Part shown: one piece after another, positions 2,750-49,400 of the stretch | Numbering within the stretch: position 1 is the first letter of the stretch | Layout of the letters: each line of letters opens with the position of its first letter | Made by a program: the position numbers and the translations under genes | Source: Amphiscolops sp. MND2022 | Taxonomy: Eukaryota | Assembly: GCA_964187785.1 (NCBI GenBank) | Contig: OZ076409.1 | Location: forward strand, 73,596,001-73,660,000 | Reading direction: 5' to 3' | DNA: 64,000 nucleotides | Notes under the pieces: model-generated | Database searches by the model: none | What the model was told of the DNA's origin: nothing | Seen by the model: the letters and a program-made list of their open reading frames with translations, nothing else

Positions 2750-2949
2750 TGTTATGAAAACGAAAAATAGTGGAATTTCGTTTCCTCCTTTCTCTTGATA
2801 TTTTTCCTTCAAGTCAATTTGTCAAAAGGAAGACATTTGTTCAACTGAGTTATCTGAATCCTGTCCAGAGGTGTCACCCGGACGAATACCATTTCAAGCT
2901 GAAGTACACAAATCAGGGTAGTATTAGACATCACAAACTCCTACCAACT

Positions 2950-2995
2950 CCCACCGTCTGTGGGCATGCCGAGGCATGCCCTTCGACGACGTATG
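2950..2995 (+). other. Conserved 3'-subterminal palindromic box (example copy; present in 27 of 37 unit ends)
   Basis: CCCACCGTCYGTGGGCATGCCGAGGCATGCCCTTCGACGACGT, with a perfect 9-bp stem GGGCATGCC-GA-GGCATGCCC (2962-2981). In the copies measured it ends 39-55 nt before the unit end. Confidence 0.85.
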
Positions 2996-27886: not shown

Positions 27887-30464
27887 GTGCCGGTGTTTTT
27901 TTACACAAAGGGGGATGTTGCGCGTGTGGGGAGGGTCCCTGACGCGCTCCCGGGATTTCGGATTTTTTAACCTTTACGTACCCATCAAAAATTTTGGGAT
28001 CTCGAAAACTAGCCGTACGATTTGGCTGAATTTTGGCACACGTACCCCCCTCGGCACGGTGAAGATGATTCCCTACTGACGTTTTTCCCGCTAAACATTT
28101 TTTGTTGACCAAAATAACGGTTTTTGGGGTAAAATTTTCAACTTTTTTCAAATTTCATCTTATATCTCGCCACGGGTACACGCTAGCGCTTTCAAACTTT
28201 GCTGACGAAAGTTTGCAAACTGTCTCAGGAATGCTGTGTGAAATTTTCAGCTCAATCGGACTCAAACTCCAAGAGATATAGCGTTTTTCCGGAGCGGGGG
28301 GGTTTCATTTTTCTAACGGTCCAGCTTATCTTTGCCATTTTTTCGAAAATGTACTCGGCTAAAGGCCTCCCCTGGCCGGTTTTATTCCCAGCAAAACCAT
28401 TTGGCCCTAAATACGGAGTTTCAGCGTTCCAGCATTCCCGGGCGAAAAGTTGTGGGACTTAGAAAATTTCAAAAATTTTCAAAAATTTTTTTTTCCGTTA
28501 TTTGGGCCCCCAAAGTGGGGGAAAAGACACCCCAACCGGTAAATCAAGTGAATGCATGTGCAAAGCCCTTGTTTGGACGAGAAAAATGCCGTTTAGAACG
28601 TCTTTTTATCTTGGCTCAACGTTGACTTATGACGTTTTGAAGGTGATGTTTGGAGTGTAAAGCAAGTGAATAGTAAACGTTATGAGTATTTGTCTGATCT
28701 GAAAGCCATTGGGATGCAATATGGTTTGCTCAAAACGTAATTCATTGCAGTTTGGCAATCAATCAACACCCTTTGTTGTCGTTTGACATACTTTTTTGTT
28801 GTTATAATAAAAAATTTTGTGTATTTATTCATTTTTTTCTCATCAAATAACTTGAAACAGTTGAGTACATTCCATCCCCCCTTCCGGGGGAGATGAGAAT
28901 GTACTCGCAAAAAGCACCGAACTACGGCCCTTACCTTCCCGAGCTACGCAGTATAAGGATTAGATATTGGTTCCGACATTTTCATAGAGTTAAATCTTGG
29001 TAATCTGTCTGGATATGCAGAAAAATCAGCACGTGCCTTTTAATACCAAGTTGCTCACCACGACAATTATTTTATATCAACGCCCCCATATTTATCAACG
29101 CCCCCCGTCCGTGGGCATGCCGAGGCATGCCCTTCGACGACCCGCACCAAAATATGCGTTAGCGCGGTAGCTGCTAGGTGCCGGTGTTTTTTTACACAAT
29201 GGGGGAAGTTGCGCGGTTGGGGAGGGTCCCTGACGCGCTTCCGTGGTATCGGGTCTTTCAACCGATGAAAACGACATAAAAAATTGGGATCTCGAAAACT
29301 AGCCATACGATTTGGCTGAAATTTGGCACACGTACCCCCCTCGGCACGGTGAAGATGATTCCCTACTGACGTTTTTCCCGCTAAACATTTTTTGTTGACC
29401 AAAATAACGGTTTTTGGGGTAAAATTTTCAACTTTTTTAAATTTCATCTTATATCTCGCCACGGGTGCACGCTAGCGCTTCCAAACCTTGCTGACGAAAG
29501 TTTGCAAACTGTCTCAGGAATGCTGTGTGAAAATTTCAGCTCAATCGGACTTAAACTCGAGGAGATATAGCGTTTTTCCGGAGCGGGGGGGTTTCATTTT
29601 TCTAACGGTCCAGCTTATCTTTGCCATTTTTTCAAAAATGCACTCGCCTAAAGGCCTCCCCTGGCCGGTTTTATTCCCAGCAAAACCATTTGGCCCTAAA
29701 TACGGAGTTTCAGCGTTCCAGCATTCCCGGGCAAAAAGTTGTGGGACTTAGAAAATTTCAAAAATTTTCAAAATTTTTTTTTCCGTTATTTGGGCCCCCA
29801 AAGTGGGGGAAAAGACCCCCCAACCAGTAAAGCAAGTGAATGCATGTGCAAAGCCCTTGTTTAGAGGAGAAAAATGCCGTTTAGAACGTCTTTTTATCTT
29901 GGCTCAACGTTGACTTATGACGTTTTGAAGGTGATGTTTGGAGGTGTAAAGCACGTGAATAGTAAACGTTATGAGTATTTATCTGATCTGAAAGCCATTG
30001 AGATGCAATATGGTTTGCTCAAAACGTAATTCATTGCAGTTTGGCAATCAATCAACACCCTTTGTTGTCGTTTGACATACTTTTTTGTTGTTATAATAAA
30101 AAATTTTGTGTATTTATTCATTTTTTTCTCATCAAATAACTTGAAACAGTTGAGTACATTCCATCCCCCCCTTCCGGGGGAGATGAGAATGTACTCGCAA
30201 AAAGCACCGAACTACGGCCCTTACCTTCCCGAGCTACGCAGTATAAGGATTACATATTGGTTCCGACATTTTCATAGAGTTAAATCTTGGTAATCTGTCT
30301 GGATATGCAGAAAAATCAGCACGTGCCTTTTAATACCAAGTTGCTTACAACGACAATTATTTTATATCAACGCCCCATATTTATCAACGCCCCCCGTCCG
30401 TGGGCATGCCGAGGCATGCCCTTCGACGACGTATACCAAGATATGCGTTAACGCGTTAGCCTAG
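27887..30464 (+). mobile_element. Two H-type units (27887-29177, 29178-30464)
   Basis: H core, box and CTAG. Confidence 0.85.
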
Positions 30465-33005
30465 GTGGCCGTGTCTTTTCGACGTGCTTTTGCATCGAGG
30501 AGTGGGTAGGGCCCCGCGACGACCTAGAAGAATTGGATGCTCACCGAAACGTGCAGAATTCTACGAGATCTCATAGTTTGAGCCATACGATTTTTCTGAA
30601 ATTTGGCATGTGGCCTGGAATTGGTGAGTAGGTAAAACGTGTAGAAGGTAATTTTTCCCAAATTCCACTCTGAGACGAGATATGGGCAAATAACGGTCCC
30701 AAAAATCGCAAAATTGCACTTTTTTCAACTTTGTCAGCCCATATCTCGTTCCCAGGTGCCCGGAGCGGGACGCGTTAAGCTGATTATAAACTTTAGGGTG
30801 TTGAGGCGGTACGGTGAACTTGGGCCCGTTCCGATCGGACTTGTAGTCTTGGAGAAATAACGGTATTTTTGGGAAATTTTTTCTAACGGTCCAGCTTATC
30901 TTTGCCATTTTTTCGAAAATGTACTCGCCTAAAGGCCTCCCCCTGGCCGAATTTACACCCAGCAAAACCATTTGGCCCTAAATACGGAGTTTCAGCGTTC
31001 CAGCATTCCCGGGCGAAAAGTTGTGGGACTTGGAAAAATTTCAAAAATTTTCAAAATTTTTTTTTTAACGTTTTCCGGGCCCCCAATGAAGGGGAAACGA
31101 ACCCCCAACCAGTATTTTGAGTGAATGCATGTGGAAAGGCCATGGTTAGAGGAGAAAAATGCCGTTTAGATTGTCTTTCTATTTTAACTTGACATTGACT
31201 TATGACGTTTTGAATGTGATGTTAGGATGTGTGAGGCATGTGAAAAGTTGATGTTTTGAGTCTTTATCTCATATGAAAGCAATTGAGATGCACGCTGTCC
31301 TGCTCAAAACGTCTTTCGTTGTAGTTTTCCAGTGCACCAGAACCCTTTGGTGTCATTTGAACATACTTTTCTTCGGTTTATTAACATTTTTAATGTATTT
31401 ATTCCAATTTTTATTATCTTATAGCTCAAAACAGTTGAGTACATTTCATCTCCCTTTCGGGGGAGATGAGAATGTACTCGCTAAAGACCTAGCGCCATGA
31501 CCAAAATTTGAAGCGCACGTTTTGTATCTTCTTACAGACTTGTTTTTGTATTTTTTCGGATTTTTCTAAAAAATAATAATATACTTGAAATACATTACTT
31601 GACTTTACTACTACATTCCACCTCCAACGTCAACGCCCCCCTGCTTGCATCAACGCCCACCGTCCGTGGGCATGCCGAGGCATGCCCTTCGACGACGTAT
31701 GCCAAATGCCCAGTGCCACGCAGTCATTTTCGCTAGGTGGCCGTGTCTTTTCGACGTGCTTTTGCATCGAGGAGTGGGTAGGGCCCCGCGACGACCTAGA
31801 AGAATTGGATGCTCACCGAAACGTGCAGAATTCTACGAGATCTCATAGTTTGAGCCATACGATTTTTCTGAAATTTGGCATGTGGCCTGGAATTGGTGAG
31901 TAGGTAAAACGTGTAGGAGGTGATTTTTCCCAAATTCCACTGTGAGACGAGATATGGGCAAATAACGGTCCCAAAAATGGCAAAAATGCACTTTTTTCAA
32001 CTTTGTCAGCCCATATCTCGTTCCCAGGTGCCCGGAGCGGGACGCGTTAAGCTGATTATAAACTCTAGGGTGTTGAGGCTGTACGGGGAAGTCAGGCCCG
32101 TTCCGATCGGACTTGTAGTCTTGGAGAAATAACGGTATTTTTGGGGAACCTTTTCTAACGGTCCAGCTTATCTTTGCCATTTTTTCGAAAATGTACTCGC
32201 CTAAAGGCCTCCCCCTGGCCGAATTTACTCCCAGCAAAACCATTTGGCCCTAAATACGGAGTTTCAGCGTTCCAGCATTCCCGGGCGAAAAGTTGTGGGA
32301 CTTGGAAAATTTTCAAAAATTTTCAAAAAAAATTTTTTTCGTATTCCGGGCCCCCAATGAAGGGGAAACGACCCCCCAACCAGTATTTTGAGTGAATTCA
32401 TGTGGAAAGCCCTTGTTTTGACGAGAAAAATACCGTTTAGAACATCTTTTTATCTTGACTCAACGTTGACTTATGACGTTTTGAATGTGATGTAAGGATG
32501 TAGGAGGCATGTGATAAGTTGATGTTTTGAGTCTTTATCTCATATGAAAGCGGTTGAGATGCAAGCTGTCCTGCTCAAAACGTCTTTCGTTGTAACTTTC
32601 CAGTGCACCAATACCCTTTGGTGTCATATAAACATACTTTTTGTCGATATATTAACAATTTTAATGTATTTATTCCAATTTTTATTATCTTATAACTCAA
32701 AACAGTTGAGTACATTTCATCTCCCTTTCGGGGGAGATGAGAATGTACTCGCTAAAGACCTAGCGCCATGACCAAAAATTTGAAACTCACGTTTTTTATC
32801 TTCTTACAGACTTGTTTTTGTATTTTTTCGGAATTTTTTAAAAATTAATATACTTGAAATACATTACTTGACTTTACTACTACAACCCACCTCCAACGAC
32901 AACGCCCCCCTGCTTGCATCAACGCCCACCGTCCGTGGGCATGCCGAGGCATGCCCTTCGACGACGTATGCCAAATGCCCAGTGCCACGCAGTCATTATC
33001 GCTAG
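30465..33005 (+). mobile_element. Two G-type units (30465-31736, 31737-33005)
   Basis: Copies of 18190-19458. Confidence 0.85.
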
Positions 33006-36000
33006 GTGCCGGGATTTCTATTCGATAAGGAATTTTGCGCGGTTGGGTAGGGCCCCGTGAGCGCGCCAGGGGATAGTGTTAGAACAACAAGGATTTGGGC
33101 ATCAGTTGGGAGCGATTTTCTAAACTATCCGTACGATTTGGCTCAAATTTGGCATGAAGCTTCCTTGGAACATTCTAAGAACAAATCCCTACTGGCGTTT
33201 TGCTGGGAAAAATCAAAAAGTTGGTCAAAAATGCGACTTTCCGACGAAATTTTCGAGTACTTTTTTTTTGAATCGTTATATCTCGCCACAGGGTTACGCT
33301 AGCGCTTCGCAACCTATGATCGTGTTTTGTAGGGCGTTGTCTGTAGAACACGTATGCCAAATTTGGTGGCAATCGGACTTAAACTCAGCGAGTTAGAGCG
33401 ATTTTTTTGGTGATTTTTTGACATTTTTTGCATTTGCCGATTTATCTCTGCCGTTTTTGCCCAGATTTTTTTTGAGACACTCTCCTAAAGACCTCCCCTG
33501 GCCGGTTTACCTCCCAGCAAAACCATTTGGCCCTAAATACGAAGTTTCAGCGTTCTAGCAATCCCGGGCGAAAAGTTATGGGACTTAGAAAATTTTTTCG
33601 AAAACGCAAAATGTGTAAAGTCAACTTCAGGCCTCCCAAAGTCAAGGAACTTCCACACAACTAGTATTGCAAGTGAATGCATGTGGAAAGTACTCGAAAA
33701 GACGAGGAAAATGAGCTATAGAACGTCTCTGTATCTTAACCTGACGTTGACTTATGGTGTTTTGAATGTGGGCTTCCTGAGGGGTCTGAAAAGCAAAAAT
33801 TAAAAATGGAAACTAAGTCTTATTGAAAACTCACCGGATTCCGTGCAATCGACCCCAGAACGTGCTCAATTGTAGTTTCCTAATCTATCAACGCCATTCA
33901 AGGTCTTTTGACTAATGTTGAAAAAATTGATACCGTATTATTCATCCGAGAGCACGAAACAGTTGAGTACATTCCATCTCCCTTTCGGGGGAGATGAGAA
34001 TGTACTCGCTAAAGTCCAGCTACTACAGCCCATATTTGTTTTTATGCGGCGCTCTTTATACTAGTGTGTAGACGTATTAATCTTTTAACTGAATTTTCTT
34101 TTGTCTACACTTTGAGTTTGACTTGACATATACTGAAAGTTTTTGACCTTACAACATACACATGACTTACGTCAACGCCCCATCCTTGCATCAACGCCCA
34201 CCGTCCGTGGGCATGCCGAGGCATGCCCTTCGACGACGTATGCCCTCACTATCGCGGTAGCCGCTAGGTGCCCGGATTTCTATTCATTAAAGTATGTTGC
34301 GCGTGTGGGTAGGGCCCCGTGGCGCGCTCTTGTGTCCCTGTTCTCATAACTGCAATTTCCGGCAGCATTCTGAGCGATTTTCTAAACTATCCATACGATT
34401 CGGCTGAAATTTGGCATGTGAGTTCCTATGACAGTTCTAAGAAACATTTCCTACTGGCGTTTTGCCCGGAAAATTTTTTTTGTTGACTTATAACGTTTTT
34501 TTTGGCCAAAAAATGCAATTTTTTCAAAAAAATTTTTTTTCGGAGCCGATATCTTTTTTCAGGGTGCCCGGAGCGGGACGCGTTAAACTGATTATAAACT
34601 CTACGGTTCATGGGCTTTACGGAGAACCTAGGCTCGTTTCGATCGGACAAGTAGTCTTGGAGATATAACGGCATTTTTTGGGAATTTTTTGGAAATTTTT
34701 CTAACGGTCCAGCTTTTCTTTGCCATTTTTTCGAAAATGTACTCGCCTAAAGGCCTCCCCTGGCCGTTTTTAATCCCAGCAAAACCATTTGGCCCTAAAT
34801 ACGGAGTTTCAGCGTTCCAGCATTCCCGGGCGAAAAGTTGTGGGACTTAGAAAAATTTCAAAATTTTTCAAAAATTTTTTTTTCCGTTTTCCGCCCTCCC
34901 CCCCGAGGGGAAAAGACCCCCCAACCAGTAATTTGAGTGAATTCATGTGGAAAGGCCATGTTTAGAGAAGAAAAATGCCGTTTAGATCGTCTTTTTATTT
35001 TAACCTGTCGTTGACTTATGTTGTTTTGAAGGTGATGTTTGGATGTGTGAAGCATGTGAAAAGGTAATTTATTGTGTCTTTAGCTCTTCTAAAAGTCATT
35101 GAGATACACGGTGTGTGACTCAGAACGTGTTTAATTCTAATTTAGCAATGCATCAACACTTTTTGTGTCTTTTGACTCTGTTTTAAAAAATCTTTCCGAC
35201 TAAAATCAAAAATTATTTATAATTATTCACATTTTTTTTCTGATCTCTTAACTCGAAACAGTTGAGTACATTCCATCTCCCTTCACGGGGGAGATGAGAA
35301 TGTACTCTTTAGAGACCAGGTACTACAGTACTTACCTTCCCCGAGCAACGCCCCATAAAAATTGCGTTTTGATCCAGATATTTTGACATAATTTTATCTT
35401 TGTAATTTGACTGGAAATGAAGAAAATGCCGCACGTGCTCTTTTATATCAAGCATCCTAACAACGCCATCTCTTTTACGTCAACGCCCCATCCTTCAATC
35501 AACGCCCCCCGTCCGTGGGCATGCCGAGGCATGCCCTTCGACGACGTGCACCAAAATATGCTCCCAAGCGCGGTAGCCGCTAGGTGCCGGGATTTCCATT
35601 CGATAAGGAATTCTGCGCGTGTGGGTAGGGCCCCTGGCGCGCTCCTGTGTTTTCGGTTTTCCTACTCCAAATTCACACCCCAGTTATCTCCGATCTCGTA
35701 AACTATCCATACGATTTGGCTGAAATTTGGCACACGTACCCCCCTCGGCACGGTGAAGATGATTTCCTACTGACGTTTTTCCCGCTAAACATTTTTTGTT
35801 GACCAAAATAACGGTTTTTGGGGTAAAATTTTCAACTTTTTTTAAATTTTATCTTATATCTCGCCACGGGTACACGCTAGCGCTTCCAAACCTTGCTGAC
35901 GAAAGTTTGCAAACTGTCTCAGGAATGCTGTGTGAAATTTTCAGCTCAATCGGACTTAAACTCGAGGAGATATAGCGTTTTTCCGGAGCGGGGGGGTTTC

Positions 36001-38149
36001 ATTTTTCTAACGGTCCAGCTTATCTTTGCCATTTTTTCGAAAATGCACTCGCCTAAAGGCCTCCCCTGGCCGGTTTTATTCCCAGCAAAACCATTTGGCC
36101 CTAAATACGGAGTTTCAGCGTTCCAGCATTCCCGGGCGAAAAGTTGTGGGACTTAGAAAATTTCAAAAATTTTCAAAAATTTTTTTTCCGTTATTTGGGC
36201 CCCCAAAGTGGGGGAAAAGACCCCCCAACCAGTAAAGCAAGTGAATGCATGTGCAAAGCCCTTGTTTAGAGGAGAAAAATGCCGTTTAGAACGTCTTTTT
36301 ATCTTGGCTCAACGTTGACTTATGACGTTTTGAAGGTGATGTTTGGAGGTGTAAATCACGTGAATAGTAAACGTTATGAGTATTTATCTGATCTGAAAGC
36401 CATTGAGATGCAATATGGTTTGCTCAAAACGTAATTCATGGCAGTTTGGCAATCAATCAACACCCTTTGTTGTCGTTTGACATACTTTTTTGTTGTTATA
36501 ATAAAAATTTTGTGTATTTGTTCATTTTTTTCTCATCAAATAACTTGAAACAGTTGAGTACATTCCATCCCCCCTTCCGGGGGAGATGAGAATGTACTCG
36601 CAAAAAGCAGCGAATTACGGCCCTTACCTTCCCGAGCTACGCAGTATAAGGATTACATATTGGTTCCGACATTTTCATAGAGTTAAATCTTGGTAATCTG
36701 TCTGGATATGCAGAAAAATCAGCACGTGCCTTTTAATACCAAGTTGCTCACAACGACAATTATTTTATATCAACGCCCCCATATTTATCAACGCCCCCCG
36801 TCCGTGGGCATGCCGAGGCATGCCCTTCGACGACGTATACCAAGATATACATCGAGCGCGTTAGCCTAGGTGGTCCGGTACACTACCAACAAAACATTGT
36901 CGCGAGCAACGGGGAGGGTCCTGTAGCGAGCTTTATAGGAAAAAAACGGCGGAGCATATATACTAGGCAACATCGGCACTTTTACCCACGATCTCTGAAA
37001 TGAACCATACGATCCGGCTCAAAATTTGCATACGGCTTCCTCTAGCGATTCTAAGAACTTTTCCCTACTGGCATTTTGCCCGGAAAATTCAAAAAGTGGG
37101 TCAAAATCTTAGTTTTTTGGTCGAAAAATGGCGTTTTTTTGGAAAAAAATTTTTTAAGAGCCCATATCTCGCTCCCAGGTGCTCGGAGCGGGTCGCATGT
37201 GGACGTTGATATTGCTGGGCACTTCTTAAGGAGTCCGTAGACAAATTTTCGTACAGATCGGATGAAAATTGACTGAGTAATAGCCGCAAATCCGACGAAT
37301 TTTTCAGAAAATTTTGGTACACCTAGTCTATCTCTGCAGTTTTTTGCCCAGATTTTTTTCCAGGACCTCTCCTAAAGGCCTCCCCTGGCCGGTTTACCTC
37401 CCAGAAAAACCATTTGGCCCTTTTGCCGCAGTTTCAGCGTTCCAGGATTCCCCGGGTAAAAGATAAATGACTTAGAATTTTTTCGAAAATTTTTCAAAAT
37501 TTTTTTTTTCAACTTCAGGCCCCCCAAAGTCAAGAAACTTCCACACAACTAGTATTACAAGTGAATGCATGTGGAAAGTGCTCGAATAGACGAGAAAAAT
37601 GAGCTATTATAAAGTTCTGTAGCTTAACCTGACGTTGACTTATGACAATTTTAGTGTGAGCTTGCTATGTGAGAAAAAATTTCATAAATTGAAAATCGAA
37701 GCTAAGTCTCATCGGAATACGTTCAGTGGACCCCAGCGCTGTTTAAATGCCGCTGTTTAGTGCAGCAACGCCCTTTAAGGTCATTTGATTCATTTTTTAC
37801 AGGTTTTGACACCGTCTTATCCATTCGAAAGTTCGAAAGAGTTGTGTACATTCCATCTCCCCCCTTCTATGGGGGAGATGGTAATGTACACGCAAAAAGC
37901 CAAGTACTACTGTTCTTTTTATACTTGGAGTGGCCTCGGCAATGCAGTAGCGGGAGCTCCAGGTCGTTTGCCGTAGCCTTATTGTCTGTTTAGACTTTGC
38001 TACAACAGAAACTATGTTACTGAACATGAAAAAGATTGTTTCAATCCAAATGTTTTTTCAAATAATAATACCAAATAACACATGTCCATATATCCACTAT
38101 TGCCACTAAATACTGGCGCATCGTCGCACAACGAAGCCTGCAGCGCTAG
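33006..38149 (+). mobile_element. Four units: K 33006-34267, L 34268-35583, H 35584-36869, F-type 36870-38149
   Basis: K body matches 57861-59120 and L matches 55264-56579. Each unit is delimited by CTAG|GTG. Confidence 0.85.
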
Positions 38150-39240
38150 GTGCCCTAATCCATCGATTTGCTCAACACTTCGAGGGCAGGGTAGGGCCCC
38201 TTGCCCGAGCCAAAAAGTCGGATACTTACGACAGACAACTTAAGGCGATTGGGACAGTCTGACCCCGATCTTCTAAACGAGCCTATCGATTTGGCTCAAA
38301 TTTTGCATGCGGCTTCCTCTAGCGATTCTAAGAACTTTTCCCTACTACCATTTTGCCCGGAAAATTTTTTTTGTTGACTTATAGACAATTTTAGGTGCCG
38401 AAAATGGCGTTTTTTTGAAAAATTTTTTTTTAAGAGCCCATATCTCGCTCCCAGGTGCTCGGAGCGGGTCGCATGTGGACGTCGATATTGCTGGGCACTT
38501 CGTAAGGAGTCCGTAGACAAATTTTGGTACAGATCGGATTAACATGGACTGAGTAATAGCCGAAATTCGGACGCATTTTGTCGACATTTTTCGAAAACCT
38601 AGTCTATCTCTGCCGTTTTTTGCCCAGATTTTTTTCCAGGACCTCTCCTAAAGACCTCCCCTGGCCGGTTTACCTCCCAGAAAAACCATTTGGCCCTTTT
38701 GCCGCAGTTTCAGCGTTCCAGGATTCCCCGGGTAAAAGTAAAATGTCTTAGAATTTTTTCGAAAAATTTTCAAAAAAATTTTTCAACTTCAGACCATCCA
38801 AAGTCAGGAAACTTCCACACAACTAGTATTGCAAGTGGATGCATGTGGAAAGTGCTCGAATAGACGAGAAAAATGAGCTATTATAAATCTCTGTAGCTTA
38901 ACCTGACGTTGACTTATGACAATTTTAGTATAGGTAGTTTTTAACTTCACTGTACCTCAACTTACTTTTTTTTCTTTTTCCAGGTGTCGGAGTTAATTTT
39001 TTCTGCATACAGGTAGTATTTGGTAACAGGTGACGTCTAGTAAGTTGGTGGTGATTTGGTAAGCAGCGAATGGTGTTTAAATGTATGTCCAGTTTAACTT
39101 AATCTTTGTCATGAACTGGTTCCTCTCTCTGGTGATGTCTAACAAAACAGCGTTTTTTAAGATTTGCTTTGATTTGCTTTGATCTGCTTTGCCAACATTA
39201 ACTTGTTTTGCTGGGCAATCAAAGAGGCTAAAAGTCTACA

Positions 39241-42200
39241 ATGCCACGAGGCCGAGGAAGAGGTAGAAGCGCTATTGCGAGGAGGAGATGCCCTGTACAC
39301 AGTTACTATCTTGGAAGTGATGGAGTTTGTTCGAGATGTCAAGAGAGTGAGCGAGTTCAACAACAACAACAAGATGATGCCGAACAAGATGTAGCAGCAG
39401 TCAATGTCCCCATTCCCCCATATTCCCCCAACGACGTACAGATGACGGAGACGGAGAGTTGTGCTAAGTGCTGCAGGACTAGCACCGAAAGATACAATCT
39501 AAACTTCCAGACTTTACACAGAGACTCTTTACATAGGACTATGTTTGGTAAACCGGTGGCGGAGATGACCGGCGAAACAATCACAATGTGCCAACTCTGT
39601 ACTGACTACAACAATAACATCAATCGACACAAAGACTGGGCCAATGCATGGCCAAGCGTTATGTATACTTTTTTATTTGACACTCATAGGTTCAACTCTA
39701 ACGCTGAAAAACTGTATAAACTACTACCTAATGAACTTAAAGAGTCCTATAAACAAAACATGAACACTGTTCATCCCTCGTTAGCGACTACTATTACTGA
39801 ATCTGTATTTAGGGATATAACTCACGAAAAGGAAGACTTTTGGACTCTAATTAATACTAAAACTGCTAAAACCTTAGTAAAAGCTCTGACTGTTCATTGC
39901 TTTCCCAACATCAGGTGTCCTGCAGGGTGTTTCGAATTTGTTGAGAAAAGTAGTGATATTTCTTTTGCCCATTTCCTCAACTGGCTCTATCCTTCTTTTA
40001 CAAGTTTTAATGCAAATAGTAGGAAATTTTTGAAGGGAGCGAGAGAAGATTTTTTGAAACCTTTTACTCTTCTGGAAAAGTTCAACGTGTCACCATGTGT
40101 AATTACTAATGAAAAAGGGTTAGGGTTGGTTACTTGCTCAGACCATAAAAACGGTGTTTTGTTAAACTATGTGCATATTCCAACAAATCCAGTTGCGGGA
40201 AACATAAGTCCAAGAAATGTCGACAGGTTAGCGTTGATGGTTTCCAGCGTTAGAACAGTAAGACCATTGAAAATAGGAGTAAAAAGTGCGACTTTCACTA
40301 TGTGTCGAGTTGATAGTGGACGCATCAGTGGCGTTAGCTCGACTGTCCTTCACAAGTTCAGGAACTTTGAACCTCCTTATCCCGACCTTCATCAAGACAT
40401 TGAAAGACTTATGATTAATTGTAGGAGTGATGTTAAGGAAATAATTAGAACATGTTGTCAAAATCAAGAAATCAGTGCACGTTTAGCTGAGGAATTTTTA
40501 TCATTCGAGGCTCCTGTTTCGTTTTCACTTATCGAAGAATTTTGTAAAAACGCTGTAGTCTTCAATATGAGATCTCTAATGGGCATGAAAGACTATGTAG
40601 AAACTTGTCCAGACGACGTAACTCTTCGCGATGATTTCAAGAAACCTCTAGTATATGGTCATAAATTGGACGGCTATGGTTCCGAACCATCAGTGTTCCC
40701 GAAAGGTTTTTCACAAGAAGACAGTTTGTTTGTTTTTTCGCATGCACTTTTAATCACTGATTCATTATGGTCTAAACTATGTCGACTTTGCGATGAAAAT
40801 GTCCACATTTTGGAAATTTGTAAAACTTTGTATCGCCTCAACGTCAGAAAAACTCAGATAAAAAAACACTACACAAATTCATCACTCATAAATGGCATGC
40901 GCAATGCATTCACTGAACTTTTTCCGTCTCAGATGGACCCTTTAGTTTCTCTTTGTGAAACCTTAGAAGGTTGTCAAGTCGTCAATTGTGCTCGAGGGTC
41001 TGTAGATAATGTAACTATCGATTGTGCCAGAAATGACTTACTTTTAGTTGTGGCCACTGAGTCGCAAGGCAGAGACACTCAAATTCCTTTCAATTTAACA
41101 TCGGCAAACGGAAAAGACTTCCAACTGATTTTCTTATCTACTGAAGGTAAAGTAAGTGTGAGACACGGTGATCCTTTTTTTAATTTTTGGACAATCATCA
41201 ATGACGGAAGCAGAGCTGTAAAAGACCCAACCTTAGAATTTCAATATAACAGAACATGGAAATTTTTAATCTACGTTTCGAAATCTGATTTCAACGAGGA
41301 AACTAAACTGCGTTACCTAAAATACATGGGAGGTCAAGGTATTTTTTTCTGTAGTGAACACAACTTGCCACTGTCAACTGATTACTTTAAGTCTAACAGA
41401 AAATGCAGTCTACCTAAAAACAATAGTGAAAATGTAACATGTACAAGAAAATCTGCTTGGCGTTGTCCCGAAAAAGATTGCTTTGCGTCGGTTTGTAAGA
41501 CTCATTTCCGCGAGTATTCTGACGCCGTCGATAAGGTTTTGGTCGACAATACGCCTTCAAATGAGGCCATCCAGGATAGCAGCGACGATGAGCCAACTTT
41601 TGAAGATGAGGAAGCAGAACAGCAGCCTGATGACAACTTGCCAGGACCCAGCTTCGTGCTGGAACAACCCCAAAGAAATGAAACTTCAGAAGCAAACATG
41701 GATGAATTTGACTGCCCTCAGCTGATAGTTGATGCCGGGTTCCAAGAAACGGATGCTTTTGCCACGGACTCTGGCTGTGAGCCCGTGTACTTGTCAAATG
41801 ATTCTAAGTTTGTGCCAATGCATGTACTTCTGAATGGCGAATGCCAACTTTTAAAACGGTTAAGGTATCCAAAACATGTAGGTAAAAAATTTCAGCGATT
41901 TTTCCAAAATTTCATTTCCACTCTGCCGGGTCGATCGATACCACTCCTGCAGCCTGAGGCATGCTTATTTCCTAGCATTTTCTTTAAACAATTAGAGGAT
42001 TGTTCTTTCCCTGGTGCTCTGCCTTTTTTTCTCTATGACGACAGAAATGCCAATTCTAAATTTGATTTCGATGGTCTGCACGAGCACATGCGTCTAAGAC
42101 TAAAAGATAGCACCTTATTAACATCATCAAATTTGAGCTACATCATGTATGCATTCGACAGTGTTTTAAATTTATCGCTAACAAAATGTCATACCAACCA

Positions 42201-45200
42201 GTTCTTTAAACGTGGATTGCAAACAATTACAATAGGTAAGTATAAACCTCAGCAACTAACATCAACTGAGTCTGTACTTAAAATGGATAGCGTCGACAGC
42301 GACGTTCATGTAAATCGCCTAGGAACTGCTTGTGCGTCTGAAACACCAGACCTTTTTGTAACATTCACTTGCAACCAAAAAGAACATCCAGGGGTTGCTG
42401 AAGTAGTTAACGCTATCTACGAACTGTACGGCAGCGCGACCACCGAAGAACTAAAAGAAGTGCTCCAGGCTTACATGGTCATCATTGTAAGATGCTGGAC
42501 TAGGACTATTGAACTTTTAATAGATTACTTGAGGTTTTCAGACGAACAAATTTTGGGTGAAATTATCAAAGTTTGGGGTAGGGCAGAATTTCAAAGTGCA
42601 GCAGCCAACCTACAACACTATCACATTCTTTTTTGGTTAAAAAATTCGACACAGGACATCATCGAGAAAATTCAATGTGCACACAAACACGTCCTCCATG
42701 AGTTTAAAAAGTTGTTTCAAATGAATTTCGGAACTGTTGATAGTGAGGAGCATGCAGGTAAGTTATTTGACGATTGTATCCGCGTTCAAAGTCATGATTG
42801 TGAGAAAGGGCACTGTCTTAAAAAAGTAAGGTTGAACGGCGAGCGAAAGTGTCGTTTCCCGCCCTATCCTCAAAGTAACGTTCCCTGGTACAAAAAATTC
42901 CACCAGCCACATTCGGAAGAAGCCCTAGTAGCATTACAGGAAATTGATTTGGCTGAACCGAGGCCTGGTTTTGATAATTCTTTGCAGGTTACAACAACTC
43001 TTATGGCAGGTAAGTACATGTATGCGGCCACCAGAGGAGAGCACATGTCACCGCTGAATGTTGCCCTCTGGAGTATTTGTAAATCCAGTTTGAACGTTTT
43101 GAAGGTTTGCAAGTCGGTTGCATCCAGGTACTTGACATCGTACGCTGCTGGAAAAGAAGAGCATGCTGATGTGGCCATCAATCCAGAAAACTCTCACAAT
43201 GTATTAAATGTTCAGGTTCAGAAAATTGAAAACAAAAAGTTAGGAGGTGTTAGAAAGATCCTTGCTCGAGAGGCTAAGCAGGATAAAACGCAAGGTATCA
43301 TTGATTCTACCACCATTGCAAGTACAGAATGTGTGTCATGGATGTTACAATTACCAACTGTAATAACAACCATGGACTTTGTTTCAGTCCCCACCGTAGC
43401 TTTAGAAAATCGGGGAGGTGTAATTTTAAAAAGGAAAAATAATACTTGTTCAAGATCAAATATACCAGGTGTGGCCAACGAAGGCCCATGTGAGATCAGG
43501 GAACATCATTTGAGGTTACCACGTCATCGACTTTTTACTAGGAGCCAGAAAATAGTTCTAGAAAGTGTGAACAAAACGCCATTTAGTACTGATAAAGTAA
43601 CTGTTTTTTCTCTACGTCCTCCTGAATTGCTTTTTGTAAACAAACTAAGACCCTACTTCAGGTGGTTTAAACGCGAAAAATTGTCCGGTAAAAGGGAGAC
43701 TGCCAGTGTACGATTTTTGAAAAACGACGTTAGGGAATCAACTTGGGTAGATGGCGAAAATTATGCCATTCGTTTAAGACCTTCTGCAGTTTCCGAATTT
43801 TCAGCTTTCGTCCAGGAATCTTTAGCGGCAAATCCAACCGATAGTAGACTGCTCGATGCCTTCGTTATAATTTCGGAAGTTTTGACTATTTCCTCACATC
43901 CAGGACGGTCGCTTTTTGTATCCAGTGACCCAAATTTGTCAAATACACCAGCAGAGGTGGTTTTTTCAAAAGTGTATCCCCGCAATCCTGCAAACTTTTT
44001 AATTCATTTTTTACTATCTAATGCTGCTTTCGAAACTGAATTTGAACTTTTTGATGTGCCAACTTTGAAGGATGCATACGTGAAGGGCAGGGTTGTACCA
44101 GACAAACAAGTATACGATGAAAATGATGTCAATGAACTTTTGAAAAAATATGTACTTGAGCAATTGCGATACCTACCAGGTGGTACGCGTTCTTTTGATA
44201 ACAATCTACTTGCGGCAAAGTCAGCATTCAAGGGAATGTTAATAGATAATGACATTTATAATGAAGGGCTGCCCATTACAAAGATGGATACCTTGACTGA
44301 AGCATTGGAAGATAAGGCTAAAAAGATGCTTCGGCAGTCCCAGTTAAACATCATAAAATCTTTAACTCAGAAAAATTTGCCCAATTTTCCTAATTCTAGC
44401 GTTTTTGAAAATGTGTCCAAGGAAACACCATCTGACTGGTCTGGTGAACTTGTTCCAAACAATTTTCAGACTGAAGAGTCTCGTGAAGAACAGACCATAA
44501 TTTTAGAACAACTGAAAGAACTAATTTGTGAAAATCTGTTTTCTGACCATAAATTTAGGAAACACCAGTTGATTTTGGGTCCACCAGGTACAGGTAAGAC
44601 GTATGTGTTGACGATGGCTTTGGGTTATGCGCTCACGAAAGGGTTGTTTTGTCTTGTAACTAGTTTAGCATCCCGAAGATCGATGCACTTTGGCGGTGAG
44701 CACATTCACAAATTGTTTTGCTTGCCTCCTTCTTCTTGTGGATCACCGATCAAAATGGCCGAGCAAGCTCTCGTGAAACTGGACCACCGGAATGACAAGA
44801 AGATGCTGTTAATGGCCCTGGAAGTACTGTTCGTGGAAGAAGTGAGCCTAATCAGTGCTGAACAGTGGTCTGCCATGGACCTCACCCTTCAAGAGTTGAA
44901 GCAGTCAACCTTGCCTTTCGGTGGGGTTTTAGTGATCGCGAGTGGTGATCAGATGCAACTGCCATCAATTGAAGGGAACGACATCTTCCTCAGTCCTGTT
45001 CTACTGACAAACTTCGCAATGTTCTTTTTGTCGCACTTTGTTCGAATGACAGATGCAGACGGTCAAACTGTACTTCGACACATGTGGAAACGTCCCATAA
45101 ATGCCCCTGCTGTCGCTGAAATACTCGCGATTCTGGACACTAAGTGCACATTCAAGGACAGCTGGGATGACTTGGACGACCCTTGTGTAATGCGTGTTTT

Positions 45201-46359
45201 TGGCAAGCGGAAAGCTGAACAGAGAGAATTCGATAGCCACATTCAGCGAGTACGCGCGTCGGGATCGTCCTACCGCATTTTCGAAGCCAAGGATGAGATC
45301 TGTCTTTCGAAGAGCTCAGTTTGGAATGAGACTGACTCTCGGCAAGTAAGTAACCATCTGAGCGACAAGGTAAACGAGCCCAAACAGTTAATTGTTTACT
45401 CAAAGGCTTTGGTAAGGGTCACAGTGAATCTGGAAGCTGAGCAATTGTCTCAAGGTCAGGTTGGTGTAGTTCACGAGGTTCCCACTGGTGACTCGGTCAC
45501 AATCTACGTCCCAGATAGCAGTGGTGGGGAAGTTGATATCACTCCTGGGATGTTGGAACGCGAGGAGTACCTGACTTGGCGGACTGTGACTCTCTCAAAG
45601 CACACCGGCTTCGTTCAGCCTTTCAAGAAGAACTCAGTGCGAAGGGTTCAGTTACCGCTCATGAACTTTGTTGCCATGACAACGCACAAACTCATGGGTG
45701 ACACATTTGAAAAGTTGGCGACGTCCATTTCCGCAACCGACAGTAGCTACGCTTTGTGGATGACGTCGCAAGTTTTTGTAATTGTCAGTCGTGTCAAACA
45801 ATTAAAAAACCTTACTTTTGTTGGTAACAAAAATGCTACTTTAAGTGCCATCGAATCTATTTTTGAAAAGAGAGACTTGAGAGAGGAACGTCTCTTCAAT
45901 TTGCTAGACAAAATAAAAAACAACTCGAGGTGCAATTCCAATGTTCAGCCAATCAACATTTCGAAGTTATCTTACGTACCTTTTAACAAAAACATCCCAA
46001 GCACTCCGAATGGCTTCGTATATCTTTTGATTAGTCTGAACCCGACTTCGCCCGAAACTTTTTACGTAGGAGAAACTGAGCGCGCGCTGTTAACACGGTT
46101 GTCGGAACACAACTGCGGCAACGGTTCAGATTTCACGAGAATCCCCCACCGTTTGCCCTGGGCAGTCGCTGCTTTTGTTTGCAATTTTTCATCACGTTTT
46201 TCACGCAAAGACTTCGAAAAAGAAATACATCGAGAAATGTGTGTTCGTCATAACAATTTGAAAAATTTAAAAGACATGCTATCTCTTTTCCAGGAAAAAG
46301 TTAACGAAAAAAACTGTAATCTTCATTTTTGTGTTTGCGGTGAAATGCAGTCGACATAA
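39241..46359 (+). CDS. Helitron-type RepHel transposase (HUH/Y2 Rep + Pif1-family SF1B helicase) with N-terminal Cys/His clusters and C-terminal GIY-YIG endonuclease
   Basis: 2372-aa uninterrupted ORF. Rep motif 1 PDLFVTFTCN (~42346), motif 2 GRAEFQSAAANLQHYHILFW (HYH 42616-42624), QSHDC..HC..KCRFP, motif 3 YLTSY (43129/43141). Helicase: GPPGTGKT (44578-44601), VEEVSLIS, PFGGVLVIASGDQMQLPSI, QLPLMNFVAMTTHKLMGDT, QVFVIVSRVK. GIY-YIG: GFVYLL..FYVGET.R.L..RL.EH..G.GS.FT (from ~46012), with a candidate catalytic Glu in KDFEKEI. Confidence 0.92.
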   Translation: MPRGRGRGRSAIARRRCPVHSYYLGSDGVCSRCQESERVQQQQQDDAEQDVAAVNVPIPPYSPNDVQMTETESCAKCCRTSTERYNLNFQTLHRDSLHRTMFGKPVAEMTGETITMCQLCTDYNNNINRHKDWANAWPSVMYTFLFDTHRFNSNAEKLYKLLPNELKESYKQNMNTVHPSLATTITESVFRDITHEKEDFWTLINTKTAKTLVKALTVHCFPNIRCPAGCFEFVEKSSDISFAHFLNWLYPSFTSFNANSRKFLKGAREDFLKPFTLLEKFNVSPCVITNEKGLGLVTCSDHKNGVLLNYVHIPTNPVAGNISPRNVDRLALMVSSVRTVRPLKIGVKSATFTMCRVDSGRISGVSSTVLHKFRNFEPPYPDLHQDIERLMINCRSDVKEIIRTCCQNQEISARLAEEFLSFEAPVSFSLIEEFCKNAVVFNMRSLMGMKDYVETCPDDVTLRDDFKKPLVYGHKLDGYGSEPSVFPKGFSQEDSLFVFSHALLITDSLWSKLCRLCDENVHILEICKTLYRLNVRKTQIKKHYTNSSLINGMRNAFTELFPSQMDPLVSLCETLEGCQVVNCARGSVDNVTIDCARNDLLLVVATESQGRDTQIPFNLTSANGKDFQLIFLSTEGKVSVRHGDPFFNFWTIINDGSRAVKDPTLEFQYNRTWKFLIYVSKSDFNEETKLRYLKYMGGQGIFFCSEHNLPLSTDYFKSNRKCSLPKNNSENVTCTRKSAWRCPEKDCFASVCKTHFREYSDAVDKVLVDNTPSNEAIQDSSDDEPTFEDEEAEQQPDDNLPGPSFVLEQPQRNETSEANMDEFDCPQLIVDAGFQETDAFATDSGCEPVYLSNDSKFVPMHVLLNGECQLLKRLRYPKHVGKKFQRFFQNFISTLPGRSIPLLQPEACLFPSIFFKQLEDCSFPGALPFFLYDDRNANSKFDFDGLHEHMRLRLKDSTLLTSSNLSYIMYAFDSVLNLSLTKCHTNQFFKRGLQTITIGKYKPQQLTSTESVLKMDSVDSDVHVNRLGTACASETPDLFVTFTCNQKEHPGVAEVVNAIYELYGSATTEELKEVLQAYMVIIVRCWTRTIELLIDYLRFSDEQILGEIIKVWGRAEFQSAAANLQHYHILFWLKNSTQDIIEKIQCAHKHVLHEFKKLFQMNFGTVDSEEHAGKLFDDCIRVQSHDCEKGHCLKKVRLNGERKCRFPPYPQSNVPWYKKFHQPHSEEALVALQEIDLAEPRPGFDNSLQVTTTLMAGKYMYAATRGEHMSPLNVALWSICKSSLNVLKVCKSVASRYLTSYAAGKEEHADVAINPENSHNVLNVQVQKIENKKLGGVRKILAREAKQDKTQGIIDSTTIASTECVSWMLQLPTVITTMDFVSVPTVALENRGGVILKRKNNTCSRSNIPGVANEGPCEIREHHLRLPRHRLFTRSQKIVLESVNKTPFSTDKVTVFSLRPPELLFVNKLRPYFRWFKREKLSGKRETASVRFLKNDVRESTWVDGENYAIRLRPSAVSEFSAFVQESLAANPTDSRLLDAFVIISEVLTISSHPGRSLFVSSDPNLSNTPAEVVFSKVYPRNPANFLIHFLLSNAAFETEFELFDVPTLKDAYVKGRVVPDKQVYDENDVNELLKKYVLEQLRYLPGGTRSFDNNLLAAKSAFKGMLIDNDIYNEGLPITKMDTLTEALEDKAKKMLRQSQLNIIKSLTQKNLPNFPNSSVFENVSKETPSDWSGELVPNNFQTEESREEQTIILEQLKELICENLFSDHKFRKHQLILGPPGTGKTYVLTMALGYALTKGLFCLVTSLASRRSMHFGGEHIHKLFCLPPSSCGSPIKMAEQALVKLDHRNDKKMLLMALEVLFVEEVSLISAEQWSAMDLTLQELKQSTLPFGGVLVIASGDQMQLPSIEGNDIFLSPVLLTNFAMFFLSHFVRMTDADGQTVLRHMWKRPINAPAVAEILAILDTKCTFKDSWDDLDDPCVMRVFGKRKAEQREFDSHIQRVRASGSSYRIFEAKDEICLSKSSVWNETDSRQVSNHLSDKVNEPKQLIVYSKALVRVTVNLEAEQLSQGQVGVVHEVPTGDSVTIYVPDSSGGEVDITPGMLEREEYLTWRTVTLSKHTGFVQPFKKNSVRRVQLPLMNFVAMTTHKLMGDTFEKLATSISATDSSYALWMTSQVFVIVSRVKQLKNLTFVGNKNATLSAIESIFEKRDLREERLFNLLDKIKNNSRCNSNVQPINISKLSYVPFNKNIPSTPNGFVYLLISLNPTSPETFYVGETERALLTRLSEHNCGNGSDFTRIPHRLPWAVAAFVCNFSSRFSRKDFEKEIHREMCVRHNNLKNLKDMLSLFQEKVNEKNCNLHFCVCGEMQST

Positions 46360-47178
46360 AAATATAACATTTAAAACGCTTTGTTTTTGGCACGAGTTTT
46401 CTTAAATGTGTTTGTTGGAATCGACGATGAGCGTGGTTCCAGGTAGGTTTAAATTAGGTTGGTTTGCTGGAATCGACGATGAGCGTGGTTCCGGAAATGA
46501 TCAATCAGAATAAAAAAATTTCATTGAGGTTTTGAAACATCATGTAACTTCGAGGTATGTTGCCCTTTTGAGCCATCTGCCTCTTAAAACTAGAACTTGA
46601 AGTAACCTTCATTCTATTTTTCAAGTGTATCCTTGTGTGTTGCCCTTTTGAGCCATCCGCAATGATACACTTCTTTTTTTGAAAATGGAGGTTAACCTGG
46701 TAAAAATGACAGCGATCCAGTTGAAGAAGAAGACGATGAAGAACGATGTCGCGGACAGCAGACGATGGTGCAGCTGAAGCAGAGCAGATGATGACGATCT
46801 AGAAGCAAGACCCCAGTGTAAAAGCTTGTGTAGCCCTTTTGAGCCTTCCAAGCTTATACACTAAATATAAAAATGAAAGTCTTAACAAATATAACCAGTG
46901 TGGCAGCACGTGTAGCCTTTCTGAGCCTTCCGTGCTGAGACACTCTCCTTAATAAAAATAGGTCGAGAAATTCTAAAATCGGAATTATTAGACCAAAACA
47001 TGACTTCCCTAAAACTGACTTTTTTCTACTTCGGACTTTTTGACTAAAAGACTCCAAGACTGAGACTTAATTGACTTTTTTCTAAAACCTAACCGTCCTT
47101 TTTCCTTACGTAGTGAGAATGAGTGGAGTTGAGCATTGAGACGTTTTTGGATACATTCAAACTAGTGTTTATACCAGA

Positions 47179-48060
47179 GCGTCCAGATGAAGAAGAAAGA
47201 AGATTCGGAAGATGAGAATAAATAATATGTATAATAGTAATATTTATAGTAGTTGCGTCCAGATGAAGAAGAAAGAAGATTCGGAAGATGAGAATAATTA
47301 ATATGTATAATAGTAATATTTATAGTAGTTGCGTCCAGATGAAGAAGAAAGAAGATTCGGAAGATGAGAGTAATTGATATTTATAATAGTAATATTTATA
47401 GTAGGTGCGTCCAGATGAAGAAGAAAGAAGATTCGGAAGTAGAGAATAAATAATATTTATGATAGTAATATTTATAGTAGGTGCGTCCAGATGAAGAAGA
47501 AAGAAGATTCGGAAGTAGAGAATAAATAATATTTATAATAGTAATATTCATAGTAGGTGCGTCCAGATGAAGAAGAAAGAAGATTCGGAAGTAGAGAATA
47601 AATAATATTTATAATAGTAATATTTATAGTAGGGGCGTCCAGATGAAGAAGAAAGAAGATTCGGAAGTAGAGAATAAATAATATTTATAATAGTAATATT
47701 TATAGTAGCTGCGTCCAGATGAAGAAGAAAGAAGATTCGGAAGATGAGAGTAATTGATATTTATAATAGTAATATTTATAGTAGGTATGTCCAGATGAAG
47801 AAGAAAGAAGATTCGGAAGTAGAGAATAAATAATATGTATAATAGTAATATTTATAGTCGCTGCGTCCAGATGAAGAAGAAAGAAGATTCGGAAGATGAG
47901 AATATATAATATGTAATGTAGTAATATTTATAATAGAGCCTCCAGAAGAAGAAAGAAGAAAAGAAGATTCAGAAGATGAGAATATTTAATATCTATTGTA
48001 GTAGTATTTATAATAGAGCGTCCAGAAGAAGAAAGAAGAAAAGAAGAAGACGGTCCAGAA
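47179..48060. repeat. 76-bp minisatellite, 10 copies plus 2 degenerate copies, inside the autonomous element
   Basis: GCGTCCAGATGAAGAAGAAAGAAGATTCGGAAG...TAATATTTATAGTAG recurs at 47179, 47255, 47331, 47407 ... 47863, then degenerates at ~47939 and ~48018. Confidence 0.95.
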
Positions 48061-48242
48061 CACGAAAGGAATATTTGGGAAAAGATTTTAATAACTATGA
48101 CTTGTTTTTGTACTTCACTTTTTTGAAAGGCTGTAGGTTCAGAATAGGCTGTAGTGATTAGGTTGTATAAATTTCACTGTTGGGCATGACCGCTGCAAAT
48201 CACTGGGAGCCTTAACCGATAGTACTCGTTTTGTAGATCAAA

Positions 48243-48890
48243 ATGAACACTACAAGTCTCGTGATAGTTGGTGCCAGTAATCTTGTCTACAACAAAAAGC
48301 CTCTCGTTGCCTGCAATTGTGAAACATTCGAATGCCACAGAAAAGATGAACATCTAACAAACATACCCCCAGATGCAAACTTCACGATAATTGCTCGTCC
48401 AGGAGCTAAATTTGGTCACAAAAATCAAGATAAGTGCGCCGAAAATTTATTCAAAAAAGCTCTTGCTTTGAGTCCAAGAACAATAGTTTTCTATATGGAC
48501 ATTTTGATGAACAGTGTCACAAGTCCCCCTTGGCAACCTAATTCGCCTGTGTTAACACCTGAAAAAGTTCTCAGAAAGTTGTTCACGTTAGAAAGAAAAG
48601 CCAACGCTAAAGATTGCAATTTTGTTTTAGTTTTGTGCCGGCGCAAAAGATCCGACAGACAGAAACTACCACCGTCTACTTCCCGGCATCCTGGCGAGCA
48701 ACCGAGAGAAATTTACGATATTGATAACGAAATGAATAGTCTTTTGAAGCAAAATTTTTTCAATTATGTCGATCTCAAACTGTCTAATGCATCATTCAAG
48801 GTTAACGATGAGGCGCACCAGACTCAAGTTTCAAAAAATTTGTCCCTTGGGCGAATCATTCGCTACTTCACACGAACAAATGATGATTGA
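48243..48890 (+). CDS. SGNH/GDSL-hydrolase-fold protein (transposon-associated esterase-like)
   Basis: 215 aa. Block I-like VIVGASN (cf. GDS), block II-like ARPGAK, block III-like ILMNS, block V DEAH (DxxH) near the C-terminus. ATG lies in AAAATG just after a TTTTGTAG acceptor-like site. Confidence 0.65.
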   Translation: MNTTSLVIVGASNLVYNKKPLVACNCETFECHRKDEHLTNIPPDANFTIIARPGAKFGHKNQDKCAENLFKKALALSPRTIVFYMDILMNSVTSPPWQPNSPVLTPEKVLRKLFTLERKANAKDCNFVLVLCRRKRSDRQKLPPSTSRHPGEQPREIYDIDNEMNSLLKQNFFNYVDLKLSNASFKVNDEAHQTQVSKNLSLGRIIRYFTRTNDD

Positions 48891-49109
48891 TATTTTCTGC
48901 TTTGTCAGTTTAAGCGCTTTAGCGTCTTAAACTGACCCTTTTTCCTCTCTCTTTTCTTCTTTTCCGCCTTTTTCTTTTTAATAGGGTTCTGGCGACGTGG
49001 AAGAGAAGGAGAGGAAACCTGGCCTGCTTGCAGGATTGCCAGCTGTCTTCGCGGAAATTGTTGTGCCTGTCTACGTCCTTGCCGCAACTTGGACCCGAAG
49101 CAGCTGTCT

Positions 49110-49400
49110 CACAAATCAAAAACAAAGAAATTCCAAAAAAATCAAAACTTCAAAAAACCCAAAAAAAAAAACAAAAAAACCAATAAAACCAAAAAAACTA
49201 AAACAAAAATTTAACCAAAACCCCAAAAAAAACAAAAACTCAAATTCAGAAAAAAGCACAAACAAACGAAAAACCAGAAAACTTTAAGACAAAACTCGAA
49301 AACATATCTTACCAAAAGTGAAATCTCAAAAATCCTAAAACCTTGAAAAGTAGAGCAAAACTTTCCAAAAAATCCTTACAACTTAAAAACTATAAAACTT
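49110..49400. repeat. A-rich low-complexity tract
   Basis: Runs of A punctuated by C between the SGNH ORF and the third ORF. Confidence 0.8.

Follow-up and report, generated by a model that had tools for sequence, protein, structure and literature searches.

A fixed-loop hairpin near the 5' ends of a mixed Helitron-like array as a candidate start signal in a distinct RepHel-GIY-YIG clade

In HLE1, the group of Helraiser (PDB 7LCC), an HUH-Y2 Rep and a Pif1 helicase are joined in one ORF, the element starts with TC, and a hairpin is found 10-15 nt before the 3' end. The HLE2 group (Helitron2, Helentron, FoHeli3-5 and proto-Helentron) has a hairpin near the 5' end, and FoHeli3-5 are described in PMC5148889 as starting with TGCCT and having a 5' hairpin without a 3' hairpin. 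The relevant passages of PMC4067079 give the proto-Helentron end as CTAG and Rep motif 2 of both groups as (V/I)ExQxRG(S/L)(P/L)HxH, and a GIY-YIG domain is mentioned for one Sphagnum HLE2 family (PMC11417382). The Helitrons of Paramecium, presented as a third clade, encode intact transposases of very large size that fall into neither HLE1 nor HLE2, and have a fixed orientation, with a proposed target specificity and compensatory changes in the terminal stem-loop (PMC13085455).

We have analysed a stretch of 64,000 nt from Amphiscolops sp. MND2022 (the window), which consists of 37 same-strand units arranged head to tail, mostly of about 1.3 kb and none of them inverted (Table 1). Most units measure 1258-1392 bp, three 2.0-2.2 kb and one 1070 bp, and unit 27 is far longer. 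Clustered at 95% identity the short units form 26 groups, and at 80% they form 11. An assembly artefact behind the array is unlikely, because the units are 1-40% different from each other. No telomeric tandem repeat was present among the 14 tandem repeats listed for the window.

Table 1. Positions of the array features in the window.
Feature	Position	Strand	Remark
3' portion of another long unit (subfamily C)	1..1639	+	90-94% identity to units 4 and 6
Non-autonomous units, n=26, 1262-2198 bp	1640..38149	+	head to tail
Subfamily C large-loop hairpin variant	5847..5899 (unit 4); about 9434-9486 (unit 6)	+
Unit 9 hairpin	14394..14429	+	outer stem fully paired (CCGG/CCGG instead of GA/GA)
Unit 22 hairpin	31765..31800	+	outer stem GAGGAG/CGACGA, two predicted tandem G.A pairs
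3' palindrome GGGCATGCCGAGGCATGCCC, example	36806..36825	+	ends 39-58 nt before unit end in 26/36 complete units
Long internal palindrome, 17-20 bp stem, example	37844..37891	+	~300 nt before unit end
Unit junction CTAG|GTG of unit 27	38146..38152	+	T, G, G, T, G invariant in 37/37 junctions
Putative autonomous element (unit 27), 13,462 bp	38150..51611	+
Unit 27 5' hairpin CGAG GGC AGGG / TAGGGCC / CCTT GCC CGAG	38181..38209	+	outer stem with predicted tandem G.A pair
Fixed core GGG-TAGGGCCC of unit 27	38189..38199	+	inner stem and loop
Intact RepHel transposase, 2372 aa	39241..46359	+	HUH (H1126/H1128), Y1297/Y1301, Pif1 helicase, C-terminal GIY-YIG
215-aa ORF	48243..48890	+	no Pfam match
363-aa ORF, predicted multi-OB-fold, RPA-like ssDNA-binding protein	49912..51003	+	structure model matches RPA-type OB folds
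Non-autonomous units, n=10, 1070-1316 bp	51612..64000	+	last one cut by window end

The junction consensus is (C/T)T(A/G)G|GTG, the upstream unit ending in CTAG at 34 junctions, in CTGG at two and in TTAG at one. All 37 junctions read G-G-T-G followed by G or C, and TC was seen at none. GTG, which had been proposed as a non-canonical 5' end, does stand behind every junction, but as an exact end it was not borne out, the boundary lying somewhere in the invariant G-G-T-G. The cut would fall inside these four bases: CTAG|GTG obeys the CTRR rule, and CTAGG|TG would yield the 5' T of other Helitrons, as in the TGCCT start of FoHeli3-5. HLE1 elements insert between A and T; within the array the flanks of every unit are G and G. 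No duplication beyond the shared junction was observed at the 37 junctions, a comparison made inside the array, in which no empty site or isolated insertion was seen.

Over its first ~780 nt unit 27 shares 85-91% identity with the short units closest to it, and nothing else in the window matches its interior. Its 2372-aa ORF matched Helitron_like_N (E 1e-9), PIF1 (E 3e-11) and GIY-YIG in Pfam, the residues H1126, H1128, Y1297 and Y1301 were invariant in all 28 aligned relatives, and the predicted model of the Rep region had Helraiser 7LCC as its sole fold match (E 2e-8, 13% identity, TM 0.35). The HUH transposase presumed in the earlier note is thereby confirmed for the array. Relatives of the 363-aa ORF adjoin the transposase in six metagenome loci. 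With telomere proteins, RPA and MCM10 nearly tied among its fold matches, the idea that the hairpin loop is a telomere-repeat mimic read by this OB-fold protein is unsupported. By eye, the 215-aa ORF may resemble SGNH-type hydrolases. Three further features of unit 27 were observed: a 23-nt sequence present three times, two copies right after the transposase stop (46417 and 46469) and one near the 3' end (51395); a 76-bp minisatellite of 11 copies at 47179-48040; and, at 38930-39015, where the unit diverges from the short ones, a pyrimidine tract with AG suggesting a 5'-leader intron.

In the broad sense these elements are Helitron-like, with an HUH-Y2 Rep and a Pif1 helicase in one ORF as in HLE1. 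With HLE1 they also share the CTAG or CTGG 3' end, in agreement with CTRR if the cut follows the first G, the RPA-like cargo and the short non-autonomous partners. Unlike HLE1, the units start with GTG (or TG) instead of TC, the hairpin is near the 5' end, the identity to Helraiser is low, the Rep has its own motif 2 and a fused GIY-YIG domain, and the array mixes subfamilies. Where HLE1 has its 3' hairpin the units have none, the shared palindrome being located 39-58 nt before the end and absent from 10 of 36 units. The hairpin near the 5' end is a likeness to HLE2, as are traits of single HLE2 members: the missing 3' hairpin of FoHeli3-5, the CTAG end of proto-Helentron and the GIY-YIG domain of the Sphagnum family. 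Unlike HLE2, the units contain no subterminal or asymmetric inverted repeats (11-18 nt), the longest inverted match between the first 30 and the last 80 nt of a unit averaging 5.0 versus 5.1 with other units (maximum own 8). The T-run ends and the diagnostic RGSxHxH motif are absent as well, unit 27 has no Pfam match to AP endonuclease or DUF6570 and has GIY-YIG instead, and the clade has conserved the sequence of its loop.

A Rep domain search returned 373 clusters at E values up to 0.001. Motif 2, which here reads R-x-E-F-Q-x3-6-G-N-x-x-H-x-H, was detectable in 116 of the 164 proteins examined, none of which had ExQxRGxxHxH, and a C-terminal GIY-YIG domain was found in 13 of 19 long members scanned, in one case below the curated cut-off. 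At least 14 related ORFs with 77-100% identity in the Rep region suggest recently active families. Lacking a TC start, subterminal inverted repeats and a 3' hairpin in the usual place, the elements are Helitron-like but do not show the defining traits of HLE1 or HLE2. By their description the Paramecium Helitrons are similar in having a large transposase outside HLE1/HLE2, a fixed orientation, a proposed target specificity and compensatory stem-loop changes, but as described in PMC13085455 their stem-loop is at the right end, the end is CCAA and the flanks are telomeric repeats, whereas the array ends are of CTAG type, and GIY, present in the array transposase, is unmentioned in the main text of that paper. 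We regard the elements as a distinct RepHel-GIY-YIG clade, differing in these described traits from the Paramecium Helitrons. The literature searched, which comprised few subscription journals and neither Repbase nor supplements, contained no description of the clade, the hairpin or this type of array; Repbase or paper supplements may hold members, for instance among the unclassified clusters of HELIANO.

The earlier note had also pointed to a fixed loop, some 40 nt behind the junction, between self-complementary arms that differ among subfamilies. All six loop coordinates and all seven arm pairs that it quoted were recovered in the window. The motif KAGGGYCC occurs 35 times versus 4.1 expected, a count reached in none of 100 shuffles; 33 of these copies lie on the plus strand, one per unit head, and GGG precedes the motif in all 26 distinct contexts. 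GGG(T/G)AGGG(C/T)CC is found in 33 of the 37 units at 41-51 nt from the junction, while the loop is altered in units 14 and 18, and units 4 and 6 show the large-loop CCGGAG...CTCC(A/G)G form, as had been described for subfamily C. Counted from 1 at the junction, the T/G base is at +41 (six units), +42 (six), +43 (15), +45 (four) or +51 (two); the range of +40 to +42 and +50 given before is right for 0-based positions, but the four units at +45 fall outside it.

The strong divergence of the unit starts is real, the first ~30 nt being saturated (mean identity 0.44 versus 0.42 shuffled, 19 classes). A selected spacing, as proposed in the earlier note, is borne out in part: from junction to hairpin 18 of 19 classes have a spacer of 41-45 (SD 2.2). 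The idea of a ruler is only moderately supported, however, because the distance on the far side of the hairpin varies little as well (60-67 in 16 of 19 classes, SD 5.0). A true 5' end behind the hairpin was considered and rejected, since the heads travel with the downstream body in recent twins. No Rfam family matched in the window. A covariance model of the hairpin found, in the window, the unit heads alone and, in the metagenome loci, its training sequences plus L013 alone.

The hairpin was proposed to be selected for structure and not for arm sequence. Twenty-seven hairpins, 21 from window heads chosen as distinct types and six from the metagenome loci, were aligned without gaps, anchored on the loop only, and compared with 500 shuffles and six slid registers. 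Paired cells (68% versus 57% shuffled), double changes (53 versus 32) and the covariation score (0.327 versus 0.180) were matched in none of the 500 shuffles and all exceeded the six slid registers, but the two measures least affected by relatedness did not exceed the shuffles (9 pairs with a double change versus 8.8; 24 pair types versus 24.3). RNAalifold returned just four consensus pairs for the alignment. When relatedness was limited by merging the heads of the window into 11 arm classes, selected without regard to folding, own arms formed 5.0 Watson-Crick pairs versus 3.9 with swapped arms (p=0.0008), and 6.4 versus 4.4 once tandem G.A pairs were counted (reached in 0 of 100,000). The same comparison was not significant in three control windows (p=0.21-0.38), and with the loci included 16 lineages gave 5.8 pairs for own arms versus 3.9. 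The proposal that structure is kept and not arm sequence is thereby supported.

Many arms resemble direct repeats (CGAG...CGAG, GGAG...CGAC, GAGGAG...CGACGA), which, read antiparallel, are predicted from sequence to form tandem G.A pairs closed by G-C pairs. Among the 27 hairpins GA in the left arm is accompanied by GA in the right arm in 10 of 12 cases, and a right-arm GA is present in one of the 15 without it; other subfamilies have CG/CG or CC/GG at this position. On a tree of the adjacent block the GA state changed four times, at least two of the changes being forced, a count that recombination may inflate. G.T and G.A type appositions were not enriched overall (36 versus 48.6 expected), and A.C and T.C types were depleted on the plus strand (18 versus 27.3, p=0.009), which folds better than the minus strand in 22 of the 27 hairpins, the minus strand doing so in one. 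By standard folding energies eight window heads had z values of -3.5 to +1.5 and five of these were unremarkable (z -1.4 to +1.5), as would be expected where G.A pairs replace Watson-Crick pairs. The GA/GA pairing points to the plus strand, as the minus strand would carry T.C mismatches. Tandem sheared G.A pairs are known to be stable. For DNA hairpins, stabilisation by sheared G.A pairs is described in PMC13037366.

To see the hairpin outside the window, we scanned metagenome contigs, in which 55 loci with transposase relatives were found. The loop, with new arms, adjoins relatives of 25-39% Rep identity in seven of the 55. Four loci (L002, L012, L013 and L014) have the exact 11-base core versus 0.29 expected, all on the coding (+) strand, upstream of the ORF and at most 400 nt from the contig start. 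Of these, three (L002, L012 and L014) show new arms that pair; L013, nearly identical to L014, is truncated at the start of its contig. The remaining three were picked as having a loop with one mismatch and a stem, stemless hits with one mismatch being set aside: L020 and L040 resemble the exact-core loci in position, and in L023 the hairpin is downstream of the ORF on the opposite strand. The carriers are found on both sides of the clade tree, at 25-39% identity to the Rep region of the window. In L012 two candidate junctions place the hairpin at +32 (CTGG|GTGG) or +51 (CTAG|TGCC).

The loop was not found in 11 of the 16 loci with more than 1 kb upstream of the ORF, where it may have been lost, changed or left beyond the contig end, and the covariance model with filters off matched none of six long loci. 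Possible loop variants missed by the model were seen near contig ends at L007:19700-19809, L009:119-140 and L039:100-135. When related metagenome loci were compared, no clean ends of elements emerged, and no transposase relatives were found in the viral contigs or prokaryotic genomes searched. As a separate observation, sequence from downstream of the ORF is joined to upstream sequence in L043:1-210 compared with L028:10643-10767, which hints at a circle, a tandem or a chimera. Since the same loop recurs beside such distant relatives, it probably serves a divergent Helitron lineage as its end signal. The hairpin is real, its structure is conserved, and it is common to distant members of the distinct RepHel-GIY-YIG clade.

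Other repeats are present in the units. Neither the autonomous unit nor the short units most closely related to it contain the 3' palindrome GGGCATGCCGAGGCATGCCC, which may for that reason come from another autonomous family; no exact match was found in viral contigs or prokaryotic genomes. Its 27 copies in total (36806-36825 and 26 more) have a C-GA-G centre and are near-invariant, though the bodies share about 60-65%. The long internal palindrome has 29 copies in the window and is kept across most subfamilies, and it was not found in the autonomous unit, which likewise has no strong plus-strand 3' hairpin. Subfamily B units contain GCGAAGC...CTAG|TG about 156 nt before their end (5651, 9238, 12819, 14208), resembling an older Helitron 3' end.

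We propose that the hairpin is the start signal for a RepHel-GIY-YIG nick at the junction and that the array grows by self-targeting, an explanation that as a whole we lean towards. The plus strand would fold on opened DNA, with tandem sheared G.A pairs replacing Watson-Crick pairs in some subfamilies; RepHel would bind loop and stem and nick within the (C/T)T(A/G)G|GTG junction ~30 nt upstream of the hairpin; and the strand would be peeled off, cut a second time at the next CTAG and closed into a circle whose junction holds CTAG|GTG and the hairpin. These steps, from folding to circle, we regard as probable. The enzyme would then join circles into existing junctions, as single units in one orientation, and a mixed, cassette-like array would grow, short units borrowing the enzyme of autonomous copies. 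This last step, by which the family targets itself, is plausible, with the balance slightly against it. Its logic is that the chromosomal junction would be the same substrate as the circle junction. For Helraiser, end-joined circles and reversible cutting of the plus strand of its own junction in vitro are reported in PMC4778049 and PMC5876387, which makes a chromosomal junction a plausible target if specificity rests on junction and hairpin.

The earlier comparison with IS200/IS605 ends and integron attC sites, to which IS91 may be added, concerns single-stranded, structure-based recognition near the cut, and integrons also grow by cassette-like arrays. The IS200/IS605 enzyme is a Y1 transposase without helicase and that of attC a tyrosine recombinase, both different from the array enzyme, which is a Y2 Rep-helicase of Helitron type; the comparison is one of analogy only.

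The history of the array bears on the last step. Twins of 97-99% identity (units 12/22 at 99%, 24/31 at 98%, and 17/19) do not have a neighbour in common on either side, their similarity ending precisely at the junctions, and among 23 unit pairs with at least 93% identity none shares both neighbours and five share one. Such near-identical units with different neighbours suggest insertion of one unit at a time at junctions. Outside the junctions the window has 17 other YTRGGTG sites, none with a hairpin and most not CTAG. The heads (first ~110 nt, e.g. 29178-29290 and 35584-35695) are hypervariable or swapped, with bodies 97-98% and spacers 42-58% identical.

In the leading alternative, which we nevertheless consider unlikely, the hairpin would be an initiation signal only. 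The arrays would arise from rolling-circle concatemers and multi-unit read-through, followed by gene conversion or unequal crossing-over, and junctions would not be preferred for insertion. PMC5876387 describes tandemly arrayed Helitrons from both plants and bats. In the window the adjacent units 1-2, 7-8 and 19-20 reach at least 95% identity, units 3-4/5-6 resemble a duplicated pair, and the bodies are mosaic; units whose bodies are almost the same can have swapped or divergent heads, as do units 20 and 25 (bodies 98% identical, spacers 46% and 42%). Neighbours are also more alike than random units (0.71 versus 0.59), a measure distorted by failed alignments of unit 28; together with the five neighbour-sharing pairs this indicates that block duplication, and conversion as well, have also acted on the array. 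Against this alternative, those three are the only ones of 36 adjacent pairs to reach 95%, one array holds 26 groups at that identity, and the twins part exactly at the junction between different neighbours. Insertion of single units into existing junctions fits better than rolling-circle amplification of one circle.

It is improbable that the stem-loop acts in RNA or binds a host or accessory protein, such as the RPA-like ORF, in a manner unrelated to the nick. Tandem G.A pairs are found in RNA too, covariation cannot separate DNA from RNA, in six of the seven carrier loci the hairpin is on the sense strand and precedes the ORF by 0.8-2.4 kb, and the element does encode a predicted OB-fold protein. 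But units without coding capacity have also retained the hairpin, with little variation in its distance from the junction, it has no Rfam match in the window, and in L023 it lies on the other side and strand of the ORF. Least probable of all is a minus-strand orientation of the elements, in which the hairpin would be a 3' terminator of the ordinary kind, ~30 nt ahead of the palindromic CTAG: CTAG is identical on both strands, a strong plus-strand 3' hairpin is missing from the autonomous unit and Helitrons with reversed ORFs are described (PMC5148889, PMC13085455), but GA/GA covaries and can pair on the plus strand, the depleted appositions and better folding favour that same strand, the CTGG variants go with certain upstream units, the downstream unit having twins that stand behind CTAG, and the implied minus-strand 5' ends have no common first base.

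Beyond the proposed start signal and array growth, we would tentatively, and with more doubt than conviction, suggest a widespread, undescribed major clade in which an ancient fixed-loop 5' hairpin, partly built with tandem G.A pairs, is origin and target at once, so that elements insert at their own junctions and, in the chromosomes of eukaryotes, build up arrays of many subfamilies resembling those of integrons. It is unusual for a loop to be conserved among transposases with only about a quarter of their residues in common, because Helitron left ends are reported as more variable (PMC11417382). Since Helitron annotation uses TC...CTRR or inverted repeats, short copies of this lineage would be missed, and the loop and the Rep motif together provide a handle for finding its members. 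Which signals a Helitron transposase recognises at its start and at its target has long been an open question, and one that becomes testable with short oligonucleotides. If the clade does use the hairpin as origin and target, it would represent a natural sequence-specific single-strand integrase with a cargo of 1-13 kb, and self-targeting, if true, would explain how mixed Helitron arrays form and offer an integrase that is site-specific.
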